A DNA stretch of 64,000 bases from an uncultured Rivularia sp. (GTDB lineage Bacteria > Cyanobacteriota > Cyanobacteriia > Cyanobacteriales > Nostocaceae). The stretch lies in contig OY762007.1 in the NCBI GenBank assembly GCA_963665115.1, positions 2,912,001-2,976,000 of the forward strand, written 5' to 3'. Position 1 is the first letter of the stretch. The number at the start of each line of letters is the position of its first letter. Shown piece after piece: positions 53,285 through 61,473 of the stretch. The notes beneath the pieces were generated by a model that searched no databases, was not told the DNA's origin, and saw only the letters and a list, made by a program, of their open reading frames with translations. Position numbers and translations under genes: made by a program.

Positions 53285-54421
53285 TCATCTTGCAATAGCC
53301 TCTTTGAGTAGAGACATTTCAAGATTTACGATTTGGTCTATGGCATAATGTTTAAGTACATACTGACGGGCATGGTGTCCTAACTGAGTTAGAAGTTCTG
53401 GGTGAGCCAATAGTTTCTCTATGGCAATGCGGATGTTATCAGCATCTGTATTACATAGCCAACCATTCTCTCCATCAGAAATTATTTCTTTAATTCCTGG
53501 GGAGTTGGCACCAATAACAGGTAGACCGCAGGACATCGCTTCAATTAGTGCTTTGGGATGACCTTCGTAGTGAGAAGGTAAAATAAACAAACGCGCCCGA
53601 TTCAGATATGTGGGTAGGTCGGCATTAGGTACGTTACCTTGCCATTGAACGCGATCGCCTAGATGAGAAAACTGTTTTTGCAGGGACTCCCCTAATTCTC
53701 CGTTGCCAATTAAAAGTAAGCGAGCATTCAAAGGTACAATTGCCTCTAGCAACGCTGCAACATTTTTTTGTGGTACTAAGCGTCCGACAAAAACAAGATC
53801 AAAATCCGGTTCGGTATTTGAGGGACGAAAGCGTTCTGTTTCTACATAGTTGGGAATTATAACTGTACGAGCAGCTGCGTCTGGAAGGCGTTGACCAATA
53901 GCTGCTGCCATCATCGGCGTAGTAACAACTACCCTTTGGGCAGCGTTGAACACTTCTGACTCTAAGATTTGAGCTTGATCGTGAGCAGGAGATTCTGTGC
54001 CATGCTTTTTAGCAACAAACTCTGACCACATATACCCACAGCGAGCAACTAAAGGTTTATGCCAAAATTTTGCCGAACGAAGGGCAATATCAGCACCGAG
54101 AGTTTGATTAGTTTTGAAGACATCACTGCCCCACAGCCAAGGGGCATGGAGCAAGTGCAACCAACGCTCGTAGCGACCGGGAGAGATATTCCAGTGGTTG
54201 CAGAGAATTTTGATCCCTGCAATGCGGGAAGCATAATGGTAATCGTTGCGATTGCCGTAGGTGACAAAACCTACTTGGACACCCTGTTGTTGCAGACGCT
54301 GATAAATAGCAACTTCTCGATCAAACATTCCTTGTTCGACCCAACTTTGTAAGGAAACTCCACGAGTGAAGAAAAGAGTAAGACGCATGGTTTTTCTATC
54401 GTTATGTTTTCTACTAATCAA
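53285..54421 (-). CDS. GT4 glycosyltransferase (start possibly 54388)
   Basis: VGRL..QKN, PSHYEGHPKALIEAMSCGLP. Confidence 0.9.
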   Translation of the reverse strand: MISRKHNDRKTMRLTLFFTRGVSLQSWVEQGMFDREVAIYQRLQQQGVQVGFVTYGNRNDYHYASRIAGIKILCNHWNISPGRYERWLHLLHAPWLWGSDVFKTNQTLGADIALRSAKFWHKPLVARCGYMWSEFVAKKHGTESPAHDQAQILESEVFNAAQRVVVTTPMMAAAIGQRLPDAAARTVIIPNYVETERFRPSNTEPDFDLVFVGRLVPQKNVAALLEAIVPLNARLLLIGNGELGESLQKQFSHLGDRVQWQGNVPNADLPTYLNRARLFILPSHYEGHPKALIEAMSCGLPVIGANSPGIKEIISDGENGWLCNTDADNIRIAIEKLLAHPELLTQLGHHARQYVLKHYAIDQIVNLEMSLLKEAIAR

Positions 54422-54459
54422 TTTTGCCTTGAAGAGTTTTGTCTAATCTTAAAAACTTC

Positions 54460-55626
54460 TTATTTTGCTTTGCAAAGTCTATCCGTGGCAAACTTAAGAA
54501 TACGTTCAGATCGACGCTCCCAAGTATGGTGTTGCACATCTTGGAATGCTTGATTAGCAAGTGCTTGATTAAGCTGAAAATCGTCAAGCAATCTTTTTAT
54601 TGCCTCCTCAAATGATGTAGCATTATCTGGTTCAGCTAAAAGTGCATTACTTCTATCTTGTAAAACCGCACTTATATTTGACAATGCCGAAGCTACAATA
54701 GGTCTGCGTGCAGCCATATACTCAAACAGCTTTAGAGGAGAAGTTGTCTCTGAATTATGGTGTTTTCTGCTATTTGGAAGCACCACAATATCACTTGCAT
54801 AAAGGTATGTAGGAACTTCAGACTGAGGTAAGTGCCCAATGACTTGCACGTTTGAAAGACCATTACTCTTACAGAATCGTCGCGCTTGTTCAACGTCACG
54901 CTCCCAACCTCCTACTAATATGAATTGGCAGTGAGGCATCATCTGAGCAACTTTGTAAAGAGTCGGTATACCTTTATAGTCGTATAAATGCCCAGTGTAT
55001 ACAATTATAGGACTATCTATAGGCAGTACTAATTTACGACGAGCTTCTTCCTTTGATTGATATGGAAGGAAACGTTGTAAATCAACACCATCTTGTTCAA
55101 CCATAACTTTTTCTGCTGATAAGCCACCTTCTATATATTCTTTAGCTAATTGCTGGGAGATAGTTACAATGCCTAAAAATTGATTGCTGCTATAAGCGGA
55201 TTGAGAAAAAAAACCTTTATTAACAGGTTCATGATATTCCCATAGAACTTTTAAGCCTAACTTTAATGCTATTTTTACTACTTTATCTGAGCGTGTATAA
55301 ACTATATCAGGGAACTTAAGTGCAGAATAGAAAGTAGCCCAGCGAGCAAACCGCTGATTGCGATAGTTTTGTGGAAAAGGATATACCGATTTTAAAAGTA
55401 AGGGCAATCGGGTAATTTTAAATTTATGATTTAGTCCATACCATTGCTGCAAATCAAAATTATTACCTCTTACAAAAGACCATAAATCACTAAGAGTAAC
55501 TAGTTCAAACTCATCAATCTTTTGAGCAAAAGCCTGGGACATCTTAGCAACTTGTATAGAGTTTGCTGCTTTAGAAGGTAAGTTACCTTCAGAAATGTAG
55601 ACTATTTTCAATGCCTCCTCCCTCAT
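54460..55626 (-). CDS. GT4 glycosyltransferase
   Basis: YTGHLY..KG, SPLKLFEYMAA.RPIV. Confidence 0.9.
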   Translation of the reverse strand: MREEALKIVYISEGNLPSKAANSIQVAKMSQAFAQKIDEFELVTLSDLWSFVRGNNFDLQQWYGLNHKFKITRLPLLLKSVYPFPQNYRNQRFARWATFYSALKFPDIVYTRSDKVVKIALKLGLKVLWEYHEPVNKGFFSQSAYSSNQFLGIVTISQQLAKEYIEGGLSAEKVMVEQDGVDLQRFLPYQSKEEARRKLVLPIDSPIIVYTGHLYDYKGIPTLYKVAQMMPHCQFILVGGWERDVEQARRFCKSNGLSNVQVIGHLPQSEVPTYLYASDIVVLPNSRKHHNSETTSPLKLFEYMAARRPIVASALSNISAVLQDRSNALLAEPDNATSFEEAIKRLLDDFQLNQALANQAFQDVQHHTWERRSERILKFATDRLCKAK

Positions 55627-55658
55627 AAATATTTCAAATCATTTGTTAATTGGAAAAA

Positions 55659-56321
55659 TTAAAATTTCCAGCGACTCCATATTTTTTTACTATTATGTTG
55701 TTGTAATGGTGAGCCAATCCATTTGCCAGCAACCTTTATAGGTTCGTATGACGGCATTTTGTTTTGCCATTTTACAGAGTCGCGTGCTGCAACAAAGAAT
55801 AAATAAACTGCTGCGTTGAAATCTTGGTTTGCTGCTTCATAAACTACTTCAAAACCTTGTTCTTGAAAAAGGTAACGAATACAAGTTGGTGTGAATCGCC
55901 AAAAATCTTCATAACCTTCGTTTTCGTGCTGAATTTGGCAAAAGGGTACTACAATAGTGACAATATCTTTAGATAATATACATAGATTTGCAAATGCAGT
56001 CTTAACATTATAAATATGTTCTAAAGTCGTATGATTAAATACGACATCAAATTTTTGCTGTAATTCTTGTGGAACTTCTCCTGTTAAGTCAATAAGATAT
56101 TCGTTTGGTCTACCTTGATAACCCCGAAAACTGCCTGGAGAGTAATTAGTCAAATAATAATTTGTTTTGTTTATAAAGTAAGACTCATAACAATTACCTT
56201 CTTTATCAACATCTTCTCCTGCTGAAACATTCACTATTTCTCCGCTAAGCAACGGTGCTATTTTGCGTAATTCTTTGTTCGACCACAAGCGTGCCAAACG
56301 AAATTTCCGGTCTAATTCCAT
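55659..56321 (-). CDS. Putative SAM-dependent methyltransferase
   Basis: FDVVFNHTTLEH, VPF...H, DFWRFTP. Confidence 0.65.
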   Translation of the reverse strand: MELDRKFRLARLWSNKELRKIAPLLSGEIVNVSAGEDVDKEGNCYESYFINKTNYYLTNYSPGSFRGYQGRPNEYLIDLTGEVPQELQQKFDVVFNHTTLEHIYNVKTAFANLCILSKDIVTIVVPFCQIQHENEGYEDFWRFTPTCIRYLFQEQGFEVVYEAANQDFNAAVYLFFVAARDSVKWQNKMPSYEPIKVAGKWIGSPLQQHNSKKIWSRWKF

Positions 56322-56350
56322 TTTTACTACCTATATTTTTTAATAGAAAA

Positions 56351-57680
56351 CTATTTACAGCGTTGCTCATGAGTTTGAATTAAATTCTCTTCGCTAATAA
56401 GCTGCCATACTCTTTGTTGATAAAATTTACATTCACTCATCTTGCTATCTGCATTCACTGTAAATCTAAATGATTCAAGAAAATCCAGAGTGCGTATAGC
56501 TCCTTCTTTTAATTTAATGTTCATTGTATATGAACCCGGTGCCAATCCAAGGAAAGGCATTTTAAGTCTTATTTCATGTTTACCTGGAGGCATTTCAAAT
56601 AGCTGGTTATCATTCGTACTACTCAAGAATAAAGTTGTGCCACCTTCACCCGTAGACTCTGTAATTTTTAGATGGATACAGATTTGATTGAATTTTTTGT
56701 GAGCTTTACAAGCTAAACATAAGTATACATTTTCTCCACTAATTAGAGATTTAAGGATTTTATTATTAAAATCTCGAAACGAAACTGAAGCTATATCCAC
56801 TCCTTCACTTTCGTTTATTTTTTTTTCAGGTAAATCAATTGACAGTAATGTAAAGTTATTATTTGCTTTTATTTCAAATAATTCTTGTTCATATAATGTC
56901 ATGACCTTGGTAGTTTCACCAGAGATTATTAATTTTCCTTTTGATAGATAAACTGAACTCTCACACATTTGTATTATTGATTGTGTGTTATGAGAAACTA
57001 GTATAAACGATACTCCTTTTTCTCTAAGTTCAGCTAATTTCCGATAACACCTAGCTCGAAACTTTATATCCCCTACCGCCAGCACTTCATCAATCAAAAG
57101 AATATCTGGCTCGGTATGAATCGCACTGGCAAATCCTAACCTTGCAGCCATCCCAGAACTATAACTTTGCACCGGCGAATCAATCGCATCGCCAATTTCT
57201 GCAAATTCTACAACTTCATCAAATCGTTCATCAATTTCCTTCTTTGATAAACCCAAAATTGACATATTTGCATAAATATTTTCCCGTCCTGTCAAAATTG
57301 GATTAAATCCTGCTCCTAATGCAATTAACGGAGCTACTCTACCGTTAACTTCGACAAAGCCAGTATCCGGTTTAATCAATCCAGCAATAACTCGTAGCAG
57401 AGTTGACTTCCCACTACCATTTTTACCAACTAACCCCAACGCTTCCCCTCGACGCAATTCAAAGCTGACATTATCTAACGCCCAAAATTCCTTGGGGTCG
57501 TAATTTATCACCTTTTTCCCGCAATCCTAACACTTCAGCGGCAATATCTTGAACGCCGTAAAATAAAGACTTCTTTAAATCCCGACAAAATCTTTTAGAA
57601 ACCCCATTTACTGAGAGAACAACTTCACTATCGTTATTCTGTGGCTGTTGTGAAATTTCTTCTTTATTGATGCTCACCAT
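56351..57680 (-). CDS. wzt: Wzt polysaccharide ABC transporter ATPase with C-terminal domain, +1 frameshift at 57494-57497
   Basis: Frames join as KLRP-KEFWALDNVSF; GKNGSGKST, YSSGM, IDEVLAVGD; C-terminal extension ending L.PG.Y. Confidence 0.88.
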
Positions 57681-57682
57681 AA

Positions 57683-58573
57683 TTATGAACTAATCCTCTC
57701 AACTACATAGGGCATTGACAAACGGTAGACAACCCAAGCTATTAATAATCCTGCAATTGCAATTAAACTTGCAATCCAAAATCCTTGAGGTTCAGAGATG
57801 ACACCAGTGGTTGCTAATTCCCGCGTTGTTACTAGTAAAGGTGTTACGGGATTAAGCTTAACTATGCTGCCAAATACTCCATCAGTTGGAACTGGGTAAA
57901 CAACTGGTGTGAGAAACAGCCAGAAGCTAGTTGCTAAGGTAATTCCTTTAGAAAAATCTTGATAAAGTCCGCTCATTGGAGCTAAAAACACTCCAATAGA
58001 AGTTCCTAGTATTATCAAGTGAATTAAAGCGACAGGGGCTAAAAACACGCTCCAAGTTACTGGTATTTGAAACCAGATAAACAAGGCGATAATCAAAACC
58101 AGCTTGATACTAAAGTTAAAAAAGACTTCTCCTAATTTGGCAAGAATCAAGGCTTCACGAGGAAAGCTAATCTTTGCTACCATTGCTTTGGCTGCTGCTA
58201 CCGCTTGAATCGGACCTTGGAGTGATTCAACAAAGGTTTGCCATAATGTCATGCTGAACATAACGTAGGCAGGATAAGGAATATCAGTATCACCGATATT
58301 TACAACACCACCGTTTTTAGCAAAAGTAAAGGTGGCTGCCAGAACTACCGCAGGGATAACTGCCCAGAAAAAGCCTAAAAATGACTGACGGTATTGAGCG
58401 CTAATATCTCTCACCATTAACCGCCAAGCGAGTTCTCTTGATGCCAGTAAGTCCCGCCACATATCTTTGACTAATTGTAGCGGTTTTCGCATTCGACTTT
58501 CAGGTCGATGCACTACCCTGGGAAAGGAACGCGCTATTTTATTTTGTTTAGAATTAGACGAGCGTTTATACAT
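57683..58573 (-). CDS. wzm: Wzm polysaccharide ABC transporter permease
   Basis: RD..AQYRQS.LG..W, FLTPVVYP, NP. Confidence 0.9.
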   Translation of the reverse strand: MYKRSSNSKQNKIARSFPRVVHRPESRMRKPLQLVKDMWRDLLASRELAWRLMVRDISAQYRQSFLGFFWAVIPAVVLAATFTFAKNGGVVNIGDTDIPYPAYVMFSMTLWQTFVESLQGPIQAVAAAKAMVAKISFPREALILAKLGEVFFNFSIKLVLIIALFIWFQIPVTWSVFLAPVALIHLIILGTSIGVFLAPMSGLYQDFSKGITLATSFWLFLTPVVYPVPTDGVFGSIVKLNPVTPLLVTTRELATTGVISEPQGFWIASLIAIAGLLIAWVVYRLSMPYVVERISS

Positions 58574-58968
58574 AAAAATAGAATTAATTACCTGATGTAT
58601 TTTCTCAACAAAATAAGCGGTTTAAATCGATCTATTCAACAAAATATATTAATTGTTATCTCCAGGTCAAATAGAATAAAAATCCATTAATGTATTGATA
58701 TGATTGATTTAACAATTAACAAATGGAATTACTTTACATTAATTTCCAATCAAATATTAGCTATCCGGATATTTACTTACATTTTGTGATTAACAAACAA
58801 CTAATTAAAATATGTAGATATTTACTAGAAGGATTAAATCTATCATTAGGAAATCAATAAAAATTCAATAAACTAGAAATAACTCATTAATTAAATTGCC
58901 AAGGTTCATTGCTATTCAACTCAATTAAGTTTAAACAAACAAGTACTTGGCAATACAAATAAAATACT

Positions 58969-59763
58969 TTATTCCAAATTACTCACAGAATTAGACACCG
59001 AATAATTAGTACTAATCAACTGCTTCATCGCCAACCACATAAATGGTGGAATAGTCTTTGTATATCTACCCCAAAGACGACGAGGTTCTTGCAACCATCG
59101 ATATAGCCATTCAAATCCAGACTCTCTGACTATGCGAGGTGCCCTTTTCTGAAGTCCTGCATAAACAGGGAAAGCCCCACCCAAGCCAATCATTACGGCA
59201 TGAATTTTATCTTTATGTTCGGACATCCACTTTTCTTGTTTTGGACAACCTAAAGACACAAACACTATACCTGCACCACTTTCATTAATTTTTTTAATCA
59301 ATGCTTCGTCTTCACTCTCAGTAAGCGGACGAAATGGGAGCGGTTCCATCGCTGCAATATTCAATTCAGGATATTCTTCCTTTAATTTGCTTCTCATTCC
59401 GGAAAGAATTTGTTTCTGAGAACCTAGAAAAAAGAGACTAACATTCTGCTTTGGCGCAGATTCACATACAGAAGCTAAAATATCCAGCCCTGCTACTCTA
59501 TCTTGAGAAGTAGCTCCTAACTTTTTCATCATCCAAACTAAGGGCATACCGTCTGGAGTCACAATATCGGCATCTTTTAATACAGCGGCAAACTCAGGGT
59601 TCCAGTGAGCTTCCATCAACATATGTACATTTGCTACACATACTGTCTTACTTTTACCTTCACTTGCCCACTGAAGAATAGTTTGTATTTGCTCGTTTAA
59701 ACGCAAAGCAGTAATCGGAAAATCTAGCACTTTCCGAGTCGGCATAGCAACTGCCTTCACCAT
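58969..59763 (-). CDS. WecB/TagA/CpsF-family glycosyltransferase (GT26)
   Basis: PDGMP, LGCPKQE, RAP, EW.YR..QEP.RL. Confidence 0.92.
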   Translation of the reverse strand: MVKAVAMPTRKVLDFPITALRLNEQIQTILQWASEGKSKTVCVANVHMLMEAHWNPEFAAVLKDADIVTPDGMPLVWMMKKLGATSQDRVAGLDILASVCESAPKQNVSLFFLGSQKQILSGMRSKLKEEYPELNIAAMEPLPFRPLTESEDEALIKKINESGAGIVFVSLGCPKQEKWMSEHKDKIHAVMIGLGGAFPVYAGLQKRAPRIVRESGFEWLYRWLQEPRRLWGRYTKTIPPFMWLAMKQLISTNYSVSNSVSNLE

Positions 59764-60169: not shown

Positions 60170-60481
60170 TTAAACATTAAAAGCAACTAATCTAATTATG
60201 CACGTGTATTGATTAACTACGTAAAATACTGAGCTTTTAAATAGCTGTATTAAATATACTTTATTTCTCATGAGATAAAAATTTGCAAAAAAAATGGGGA
60301 GAAGATTGATTGTTCTTCCCCCCTGTCTATTATTGTTACCGTTGTCTTGTTTATTGTCTCCTTTCAACCTTTTTCGTAACATTTGCTGCTGTTTCTTGAG
60401 TTGTCGTTTTCTCGCAGCACCGCCTTTACCTTTATCGTTTCTCCCTTGTCGGCGTGGAGACTCCCATCTTTTAAGTCGCAT
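60170..60481 (-). CDS. Small Lys/Arg-rich protein; candidate ArfA/BrfA-like ribosome rescue factor
   Basis: AAGGGA RBS and extended -10 upstream; basic N-terminal ~55 aa with KGKGG; internal terminator before the stop codon. Confidence 0.6.
   Translation of the reverse strand: MRLKRWESPRRQGRNDKGKGGAARKRQLKKQQQMLRKRLKGDNKQDNGNNNRQGGRTINLLPIFFANFYLMRNKVYLIQLFKSSVFYVVNQYTCIIRLVAFNV
60287..60323 (-). terminator. Intrinsic terminator inside the 60170-60481 ORF
   Basis: GGGGGGAAGA-N8-TCTTCTCCCC stem (10 bp, one G-U) followed by A and T8 on the minus strand. Confidence 0.85.
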
Positions 60482-60536
60482 GATTTAATTGTCCCTTGTA
60501 TTTGATTGATAGTATGTTTGCATCTTTATTATACAA

Positions 60537-60545
60537 AGTATAGCA
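60537..60545 (-). promoter_or_regulatory. Putative extended -10 element (TGcTATACT) for the small basic ORF
   Basis: 55 nt upstream of the ATG at 60481. Confidence 0.45.
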
Positions 60546-61321
60546 TAACAGAAAAATTCAGGTTAGAACTGATTCTTTAGTTAGATTGTTTTATAATTCT
60601 ATACAAGTTACAGCCTTCCTTATTGATAAGTAAAAATAATCTATACTAGCTATACTTAGTCATCAAGATTGCTAATTTTTAAGTTACCTTTTTACCTGAT
60701 ATCAATTAATTTTGATTATAATATCGATCGCTTCAGCCGCAAACGGATCGGATAGTAGTAGAACATCATAGTTGGGCTGAATAGCTTTAATCGGGCAATT
60801 GATATTTATTATAAGATGCCAATATCTACATGATTTTAGGAATGATTATAATAAATATCAAAAAGTGCAGTTACTTCATTCTGAGTTATCAAGAATAAAG
60901 TTAGTACAAGTATAGATACATTATTCTTTTCCAGTTTTCCGGAAATAAATGTATAACTTTTCAAGCAATATTATAAATTTATCTAATTTTATACATAAGC
61001 AAACGCAAGGATAAGTAATACCATTTCTTTATAAGGATGCGCTTAATTTAGCCCACGCAGGTGGGCTTTGTTCGAGTAGCCCTACTCTTCCAGAGTGAGG
61101 GCGATTTAGCGCAGCCTCATACAGAATTGGTATAAGGCATTCCAAGCAGCTACAATTTCTCCAAACTTATGCTGAACCTTGAACAAAAGCATGGTTCAGT
61201 CAGAAAGGAACATACATAGTGCGTGCGGTTTAGGTCTAAACTACGAGGAGATTACTGTAGGATTAATCGCAAATCCTCCTTATTTGTCGCAAATAATTTG
61301 TAGTAAACAAGATTAATCGGA

Positions 61322-61391: not shown

Positions 61392-61473
61392 TGGGCCGGG
61401 AGAGACTCGAACTCTCACACCTTGCGGCGGCAGATTTTGAGTCTGCTGCGTCTACCAATTCCGCCACCGGCCC
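61392..61473 (-). tRNA. tRNA-Leu (CAA)
   Basis: GGGCCGGTGGCGGAATTGGTAGACGCAGCAGACTCAAAATCTGCC...GTTCGAGTCTCTCCCGGCCCA cloverleaf with long variable arm. Confidence 0.95.

Follow-up and report, generated by a model that had tools for sequence, protein, structure and literature searches.

A strongly conserved non-stop gene layout in cyanobacteria, a candidate for a new family of ribosome-rescue factors

The gene described here lies on the reverse strand of a 64,000-nucleotide stretch of DNA from an uncultured Rivularia sp., referred to below as the window. The features of the locus are the following:

60170 to 60481, reverse strand: full reading frame of 103 aa with a nominal TAA stop, start MRLKRWESPRRQGRNDKGKGGAARKRQLKKQQQMLRKRLK
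60359 to 60481, reverse strand: conserved core, codons 1-41, delimited by alignments, codon-position conservation and an AlphaFold2 model
60324 to 60358, reverse strand: variable linker, rich in N, K, Q and D, with no in-frame stop
60296 to 60323, reverse strand: terminator-type hairpin inside the reading frame, codons 53-62, 10 bp with an 8-nt loop
60287 to 60294, reverse strand: T8 tract, codons 63-65, predicted 3' end of a stop-less mRNA
60170 to 60286, reverse strand: AT-rich, non-conserved read-through tail, predicted to be normally untranscribed
60492 to 60497, reverse strand: Shine-Dalgarno-like AAGGGA, 10 nt 5' of the ATG
60528 to 60545, reverse strand: promoter-like region, with an extended -10 TGCTATACT (60545-60537) and TATAAT (60533-60528), by consensus match only
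61392 to 61473, reverse strand: tRNA-Leu(CAA), upstream of the gene on the same strand, 910 nt away

The preliminary description of this DNA had pointed to a very basic reading frame preceded by a ribosome-binding site and an extended -10, and followed by a hydrophobic, AT-rich tail. Residues 1-41 of the window protein indeed contain 17 lysine and arginine residues versus 2 aspartate and glutamate residues, the AAGGGA and extended -10 sequences are both present, and the tail has a GC content of 24% compared to 46% for the core and is, in the window copy, hydrophobic. Shine-Dalgarno-like words were found in 74 of 149 homologous loci (28 expected) and the extended -10 pattern in 54 of the 149 (16 expected). 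The intrinsic-type terminator said to interrupt the frame was also recovered: the hairpin (60323-60296) has ten pairs, six of them G-C and one G-U, and is separated by one A from the T8 tract, which ends 39 codons ahead of the nominal stop. Its folding energy is -17.6 kcal/mol (z -3.7), with 1 of 200 shuffled sequences equally stable. A one-base slip in the G run leads to frames of 70 or 73 aa, both running past the T tract, so that the claim that no stop precedes this tract holds even if the run is off by one base.

A hairpin of this kind is not by itself above chance, one being found in 2.5 kb where 1.1 are expected, and the evidence lies in its recurrence inside the reading frame across homologues. 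In the genome of the window, a closely similar hairpin rule fired in 16 of 1000 intragenic windows versus 88 of 1000 windows after stops, and at a cut-off of -12 kcal/mol or below in 2 versus 42 per 1000. Metatranscriptome contigs of relatives extend from 60320 or 60342 to 60481-60582; they reach no further than the hairpin and show no loose ends (three runs of one sample in one study; the contigs are assembled and possibly include DNA), and they are left out of the evidence here.

Homologues of the protein were numerous: 1207 at E<=0.01, where the named ones among 120 listed are cyanobacterial hypothetical proteins; a wider profile brought the number to 1971 at E<=1. A search of representative proteins gave 457 matches at E<=0.001; in the 150 listed, none of them named, the N-terminal core is the part that matches. 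Named homologues at 98-100% identity come mostly from Rivularia and Calothrix relatives, which points to a heterocystous cyanobacterium as the source of the window. A scan of 301 genomes of the phylum recovered the gene in 86, each with a single match, and a draw of 121 genomes from across the class did so in 65. None of 13 genomes of family f23, whose genomes are small, gave a match, and among 61 there was one weak match, carrying two stops. In the test suggested by the preliminary description, which named the first 45 residues or so, conservation proved to be limited to residues 1-41, with a mean pairwise identity of 0.83 for the core versus 0.10 for the tail. Conservation at the three codon positions of 141 distinct cores is 0.85, 0.93 and 0.63; this pattern denotes conservation at the protein level, and a reading of the element as a structural RNA was rejected for this reason.

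The core is composed of an extended N-terminus bearing K4, E7-S8-P9-R10, G13-R14-N15 and K17, followed by a predicted basic helix (residues 19-40). Ten residues are invariant across 33 host and phage cores: K4, E7, S8, P9, R10, R14, N15, A23, Q27 and K30. The stretch KG[KR]GG is common in cellular copies, but several copies from phages and hosts have other sequences in its place, such as KSPKRS or KSKAAS; this undercuts the earlier argument that KGKGG resembles the KGKGS motif of ArfA, as the stretch is not invariant across the family. The AlphaFold2 model of the core (mean pLDDT 75) has helices at residues 13-17 and 19-40, the second predicted with confidence, and an extended, low-confidence N-terminus. 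The window protein had no match in Pfam or NCBIfam; 31 family members gave only chance coiled-coil matches in Pfam, with no ArfA at E<=10, and 20 members gave two single weak matches in PHROGs. In the ESM Atlas the only matches were cyanobacterial clusters without names, and a plasmid collection contained no match to the family. Foldseek with the short model found no match, a 41-residue helix being uninformative for a fold search.

We scored the position of the first hairpin (-8 kcal/mol or below) with a T-rich tract relative to the first in-frame stop in two sets of homologous loci. The first set comprised 150 loci, namely the 30 best and 40 further of 86 phylum-scan matches (16 left out) and the 80 best of 534 matches of a further search, mostly Nostocales; some overlap between these two parts is possible. 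The hairpin and U tract came ahead of the first in-frame stop in 147 of the 149 evaluable loci, including two borderline loci where the stop falls inside the U tract; the stop came first in two (G250 and G182) and one locus was cut by a contig end. The second set consisted of the 53 matched genomes of the class-wide draw that were absent from the first set, and showed the terminator before the stop in 49. When the linkers were shuffled, about 47 of 147 and 24 of 49 were expected to be stop-free, that is about a third to a half across the two sets, and the other two frames of the linker hold a stop in 41 and 125 of the 147 loci. These counts ignore kinship, related genomes not being independent samples, and are given with no p-value. 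The check set out in the preliminary description, whether a terminator always precedes the stop, thus came out positive for all but two evaluable loci of the first set and four of the second, short of "always".

Past the U tract the avoidance of in-frame stops ends, and 94 of 146 loci have such a stop no more than about 60 nt on. The distance from the stem end to the stop varies from 1 to 83 codons and that from codon 40 to the stem from 3 to 95 nt, stem ends occur in all three frames (59, 39 and 49 loci), and the hairpins of homologues do not align in register. Hairpin sequences and frames differ between families and the read-through tail is not conserved, whereas the layout is, and it recurs in many families with hairpins of unrelated sequence. 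The predicted non-stop product of first-set loci is 50-82 aa long, with a median of 63. The layout of the two sets and the restriction of conservation to the core strongly support the non-stop design, and judging from these sequences the gene very probably gives rise to a non-stop mRNA under the control of tmRNA.

The four exceptions of the second set were G453 (stop at 46), G387 (stop at 45), G407, where the stop lies inside the core and the terminator is kept, and G408. The last contains inside the reading frame an 18-bp duplex of -38.5 kcal/mol with no U tract (L235:465-545, reverse strand), which recalls the RNase III-type stem described for E. coli arfA (PMC8012679) and could perhaps yield a non-stop mRNA by way of RNase III; no SmpB turned up in the 95%-complete assembly of this genome. 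In the related genomes G182 and G314, unlike their sister genome G202, the stop follows right after the core, no terminator is present, and the copies (L070:289-830 and L196:1620-1900) lie 15-17 nt upstream of the ribosome maturation gene rimM. The stop-bearing copy of G387 sits on a second contig of 172 kb that may be a plasmid or prophage. G250 is the sole genome of 17 in its family to carry the gene, with an ordinary stop, and its 309-nt tmRNA (L163:1501-1809) lacks about 80 nt in the 3' pseudoknot region, possibly from an assembly error. We considered whether stop-bearing copies track the loss of tmRNA, and this was unsupported, the odd tmRNA occurring only in G250 and the stop-bearing copies of G182, G314, G453 and G387 coexisting with tmRNA and SmpB. 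In G387 and G374 the tmRNA is of the two-piece cyanobacterial type (RF01851; L277, L278). Two copies, L050 (G168, broken start) and L259 (G407), are broken within the core and retain the terminator, which indicates that the gene is dispensable in some strains.

Two scans of viral contigs yielded 22 loci on 21 contigs, some of them near-identical. Seventeen of the 22 stop at codons 41-48, and five of these have a hairpin and U tract 31-47 nt 3' of the stop; the non-stop layout is kept in the other five, which are closely related to each other. We also assigned to the family ORF039 of Acaryochloris phage A-HIS1 (CBA17751.1), a 52-aa protein with a stop, annotated as hypothetical and similar to A. 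marina AM1_2888, on the basis of the shared K-S-H-E-S-P-R...GRN pattern, the tblastn E-value being only 0.6. As most viral copies stop straight after the core, the core by itself probably does the work, to which the non-stop layout would add regulation. A tree of 33 host and phage cores was for the most part poorly resolved and gave neither a donor nor a direction of transfer for the phage copies.

We then compared the family with the known rescue factors, and found no sequence or fold match to any of them across Pfam, NCBIfam, PDB, Foldseek and BLASTP with ArfA. The closest parallel is in design, with BrfA (YqkK) of B. subtilis, an RF2-dependent factor that is likewise small and basic, has no GGQ and carries a terminator inside its coding region (PMC6881298). 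Production of a stop-less brfA mRNA by termination and removal of the product by tmRNA were demonstrated in that work, where the non-stop product is about 62 aa, against a predicted median of 63 here, and the tail after the terminator is dispensable, as that of the present family is non-conserved (PMC6881298). The two differ in that no PDB sequence matched two family profiles (A2 and A6; 0 at E<=10), in that BrfA and ArfA share a Lys-His motif and the window core has no KH, and in that BrfA has N-terminal helices and an extended C-terminus whereas the family is predicted to have its extended part at the N-terminus and its helix at the C-terminus; moreover, phage copies exist in the present family. 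ArfA of E. coli (YhdL, PF03889), also RF2-dependent, similarly has a stem-loop in its reading frame that renders its mRNA non-stop (PMC8012679), and its likenesses to the window copy extend to a hydrophobic read-through tail and to KGKGS, which KGKGG resembles. However, BLASTP against E. coli ArfA gave an E-value of 0.53, PF03889 misses the family, and KGKGG is located mid-protein and is not invariant.

ArfT of Francisella, which recruits RF1 or RF2, is about 40 aa, basic and with a K/G-rich stretch, thus the size of the core and of the stop-bearing phage copies, and shows that 40 aa suffice; as described, its gene differs by having no terminator before the stop (10.1101/465609, PMC6514570). 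ArfT was compared by description only, Pfam giving no match relevant to it or to its helix-repeat family. ArfB (YaeJ, NF006718), a self-sufficient GGQ hydrolase, has a basic helical segment suited to the mRNA channel, but the family has no GGQ domain and ArfB is a separate gene in the window's genome. The family therefore combines features of the ArfA/BrfA kind, namely a conserved terminator or cleavage stem inside the reading frame before the stop, a small and strongly basic product with no GGQ, conservation of the N-terminal part only, and a host with tmRNA and SmpB. By sequence it belongs to neither family, while its regulation appears to be like that of brfA and arfA. Of the ArfA-like rescue factor put forward in the preliminary description, the non-stop, core-only design stood, similarity to ArfA did not, and rescue itself is proposed by analogy. 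We regard the design as real and strongly conserved, and the gene as a good candidate for a new rescue-factor family.

The window's genome carries tmRNA (tag ANNIVAFKRQAVAA), SmpB, RF1, RF2 and ArfB, and had no match to PF03889. Table 1 of a survey of 162 cyanobacterial genomes reports smpB in 161, arfB in 90, arfA in none and rqcH in 161, and lists no factor of the ArfA/BrfA type (PMC11633108). Among 100 genomes of the order, the gene was present in 79 and ArfB in 40, and ArfB is missing as well from 15 of the 20 listed genomes in which the gene is absent, so the two are not complementary in distribution within the order; in family f23, ArfB is present in 13 of 13 genomes and the gene in none. 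Two full-length RF2 paralogues, outside the window and in tandem directly upstream of prfB (G000:C1:777187-778242 and 778437-779492, reverse strand; L154 and L155), are 352-aa open frames that keep SPF and have no GGQ, and from this they look catalytically dead.

In the mechanism that we propose, the internal hairpin and U tract would end transcription near 60287, giving a non-stop mRNA of about 64 codons. Sites made of a hairpin and a U tract terminate transcription in S. elongatus (PMC13289151). A ribosome stalled on this mRNA would be relieved by tmRNA, which would tag the product with ANNIVAFKRQAVAA and lead to its degradation; if tmRNA were saturated or inhibited, untagged product would escape. 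Should the escaped product act as BrfA and ArfA do, its basic helix may then bind rRNA at the empty mRNA channel or the decoding site, and the invariant N-terminal motif may activate a class I release factor, most likely RF2, for peptidyl-tRNA hydrolysis. Phages would carry stop-bearing, tmRNA-independent copies and so keep host ribosomes recycling. A tmRNA-gated gene whose core acts as a back-up, release-factor-dependent ribosome-rescue factor is thus the function that we consider rather probable. In size and charge, in having no GGQ and in the terminator within the gene, it corresponds to brfA as described (PMC6881298). Counting against a rescue role are the lack of homology or a shared motif, the ArfB and RqcH already present in cyanobacteria, the non-complementarity with ArfB, and the stop-bearing copies found beside tmRNA and SmpB. 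The complete scenario appears about evenly balanced between true and false: an independently evolved, cyanobacteria-wide, release-factor-dependent rescue factor with a new motif and architecture, tmRNA-gated through a self-terminating, occasionally duplex-cleaved, non-stop mRNA, and captured by cyanophages mostly in stop-bearing form, which would escape host tmRNA control and recycle ribosomes during infection.

All the evidence for the non-stop layout would fit equally well a protein that is switched by tmRNA but does something else than recruit a release factor, for instance bind ribosomes and park or protect them, assist the RqcH/MutS2 pathway, or hold back growth once trans-translation has failed. 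No homology or motif links the core to such recruitment, there is no complementarity with ArfB, and two stop-bearing copies lie 15-17 nt before rimM. We hold this explanation to be rather unlikely, since ArfA and BrfA, the tmRNA-gated small basic proteins in the cited work, are release-factor recruiters (PMC8012679, PMC6881298), and since stop-bearing, unregulated phage copies suit a translation helper better than a brake. An ordinary small basic protein, ribosome-associated or nucleic-acid-binding, whose level does not depend on tmRNA and whose hairpin only stabilises the transcript, partly ends it or is read through, is improbable. Canonical intrinsic terminators end only 22% of the transcription units of S. 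elongatus (PMC13289151), and several cellular copies have ordinary stops, as this explanation would have it; but it leaves unexplained why in-frame stops are avoided up to the U tract and then, in 94 of 146 loci, appear some 60 nt or less beyond it, why tails are random in length and sequence, and why the terminator sits after the stop in phage copies having one.

A review predicts further rescue factors beyond the reach of homology (PMC8012679). A search of the literature turned up no account of the family; supplements, which may include the gene in lists of small proteins or of RNA 3' ends, lay outside this search. The family offers a concrete and easily tested candidate of 41 residues, occurring in most larger-genome cyanobacteria, with the stop-bearing phage versions as natural, ready-made controls. 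If the proposal is true, it would be another convergent solution to the rescue of non-stop ribosomes, this time among photosynthetic bacteria, and a way for phages to get past a quality-control switch of the host. Expression of an ArfA-domain protein encoded by a pelagiphage has been reported (PMC12753301). If the protein is no rescue factor, it would still be a conserved tmRNA-gated protein of a new kind.

The genomic context is varied. Clustering of 286 nearest-neighbour proteins gave 110 clusters, and a sample of 22 shows unrelated functions. In the window and in many Nostocales-type loci, the next gene downstream on the same strand encodes a WecG/TagA glycosyltransferase (63 downstream neighbours, one cluster), which could suggest that the frame encodes a leader peptide and that read-through into that gene is governed by translation across the hairpin; such attenuation is very improbable, as downstream neighbours are of many unrelated families and on the opposite strand in 38 of 144 loci, the glycosyltransferase starts about 520 nt past the window's U tract, and the peptide is highly conserved as a protein and found without the hairpin in phages. 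This glycosyltransferase belongs to a polysaccharide cluster (window 53285-59763, reverse strand) that also comprises an ABC permease and ATPase pair and two glycosyltransferases, all but WecG/TagA being named from a reading of the sequence.

The commonest neighbour is tRNA-Leu(CAA), located upstream on the same strand within 1.5 kb in 83 of 150 loci and often 25-39 nt away, which suggests that the gene is co-transcribed with it in some lineages. In the window, a short repeated element between the gene and this tRNA (61014-61135) had a very high contig depth in a DNA run. A 119-kb viral contig carries two divergent copies of the gene (L200 and L202) about 7 kb apart, each near tRNA genes, and one of them starts 22 nt after a tRNA-Cys, echoing the tRNA-Leu linkage of the host.
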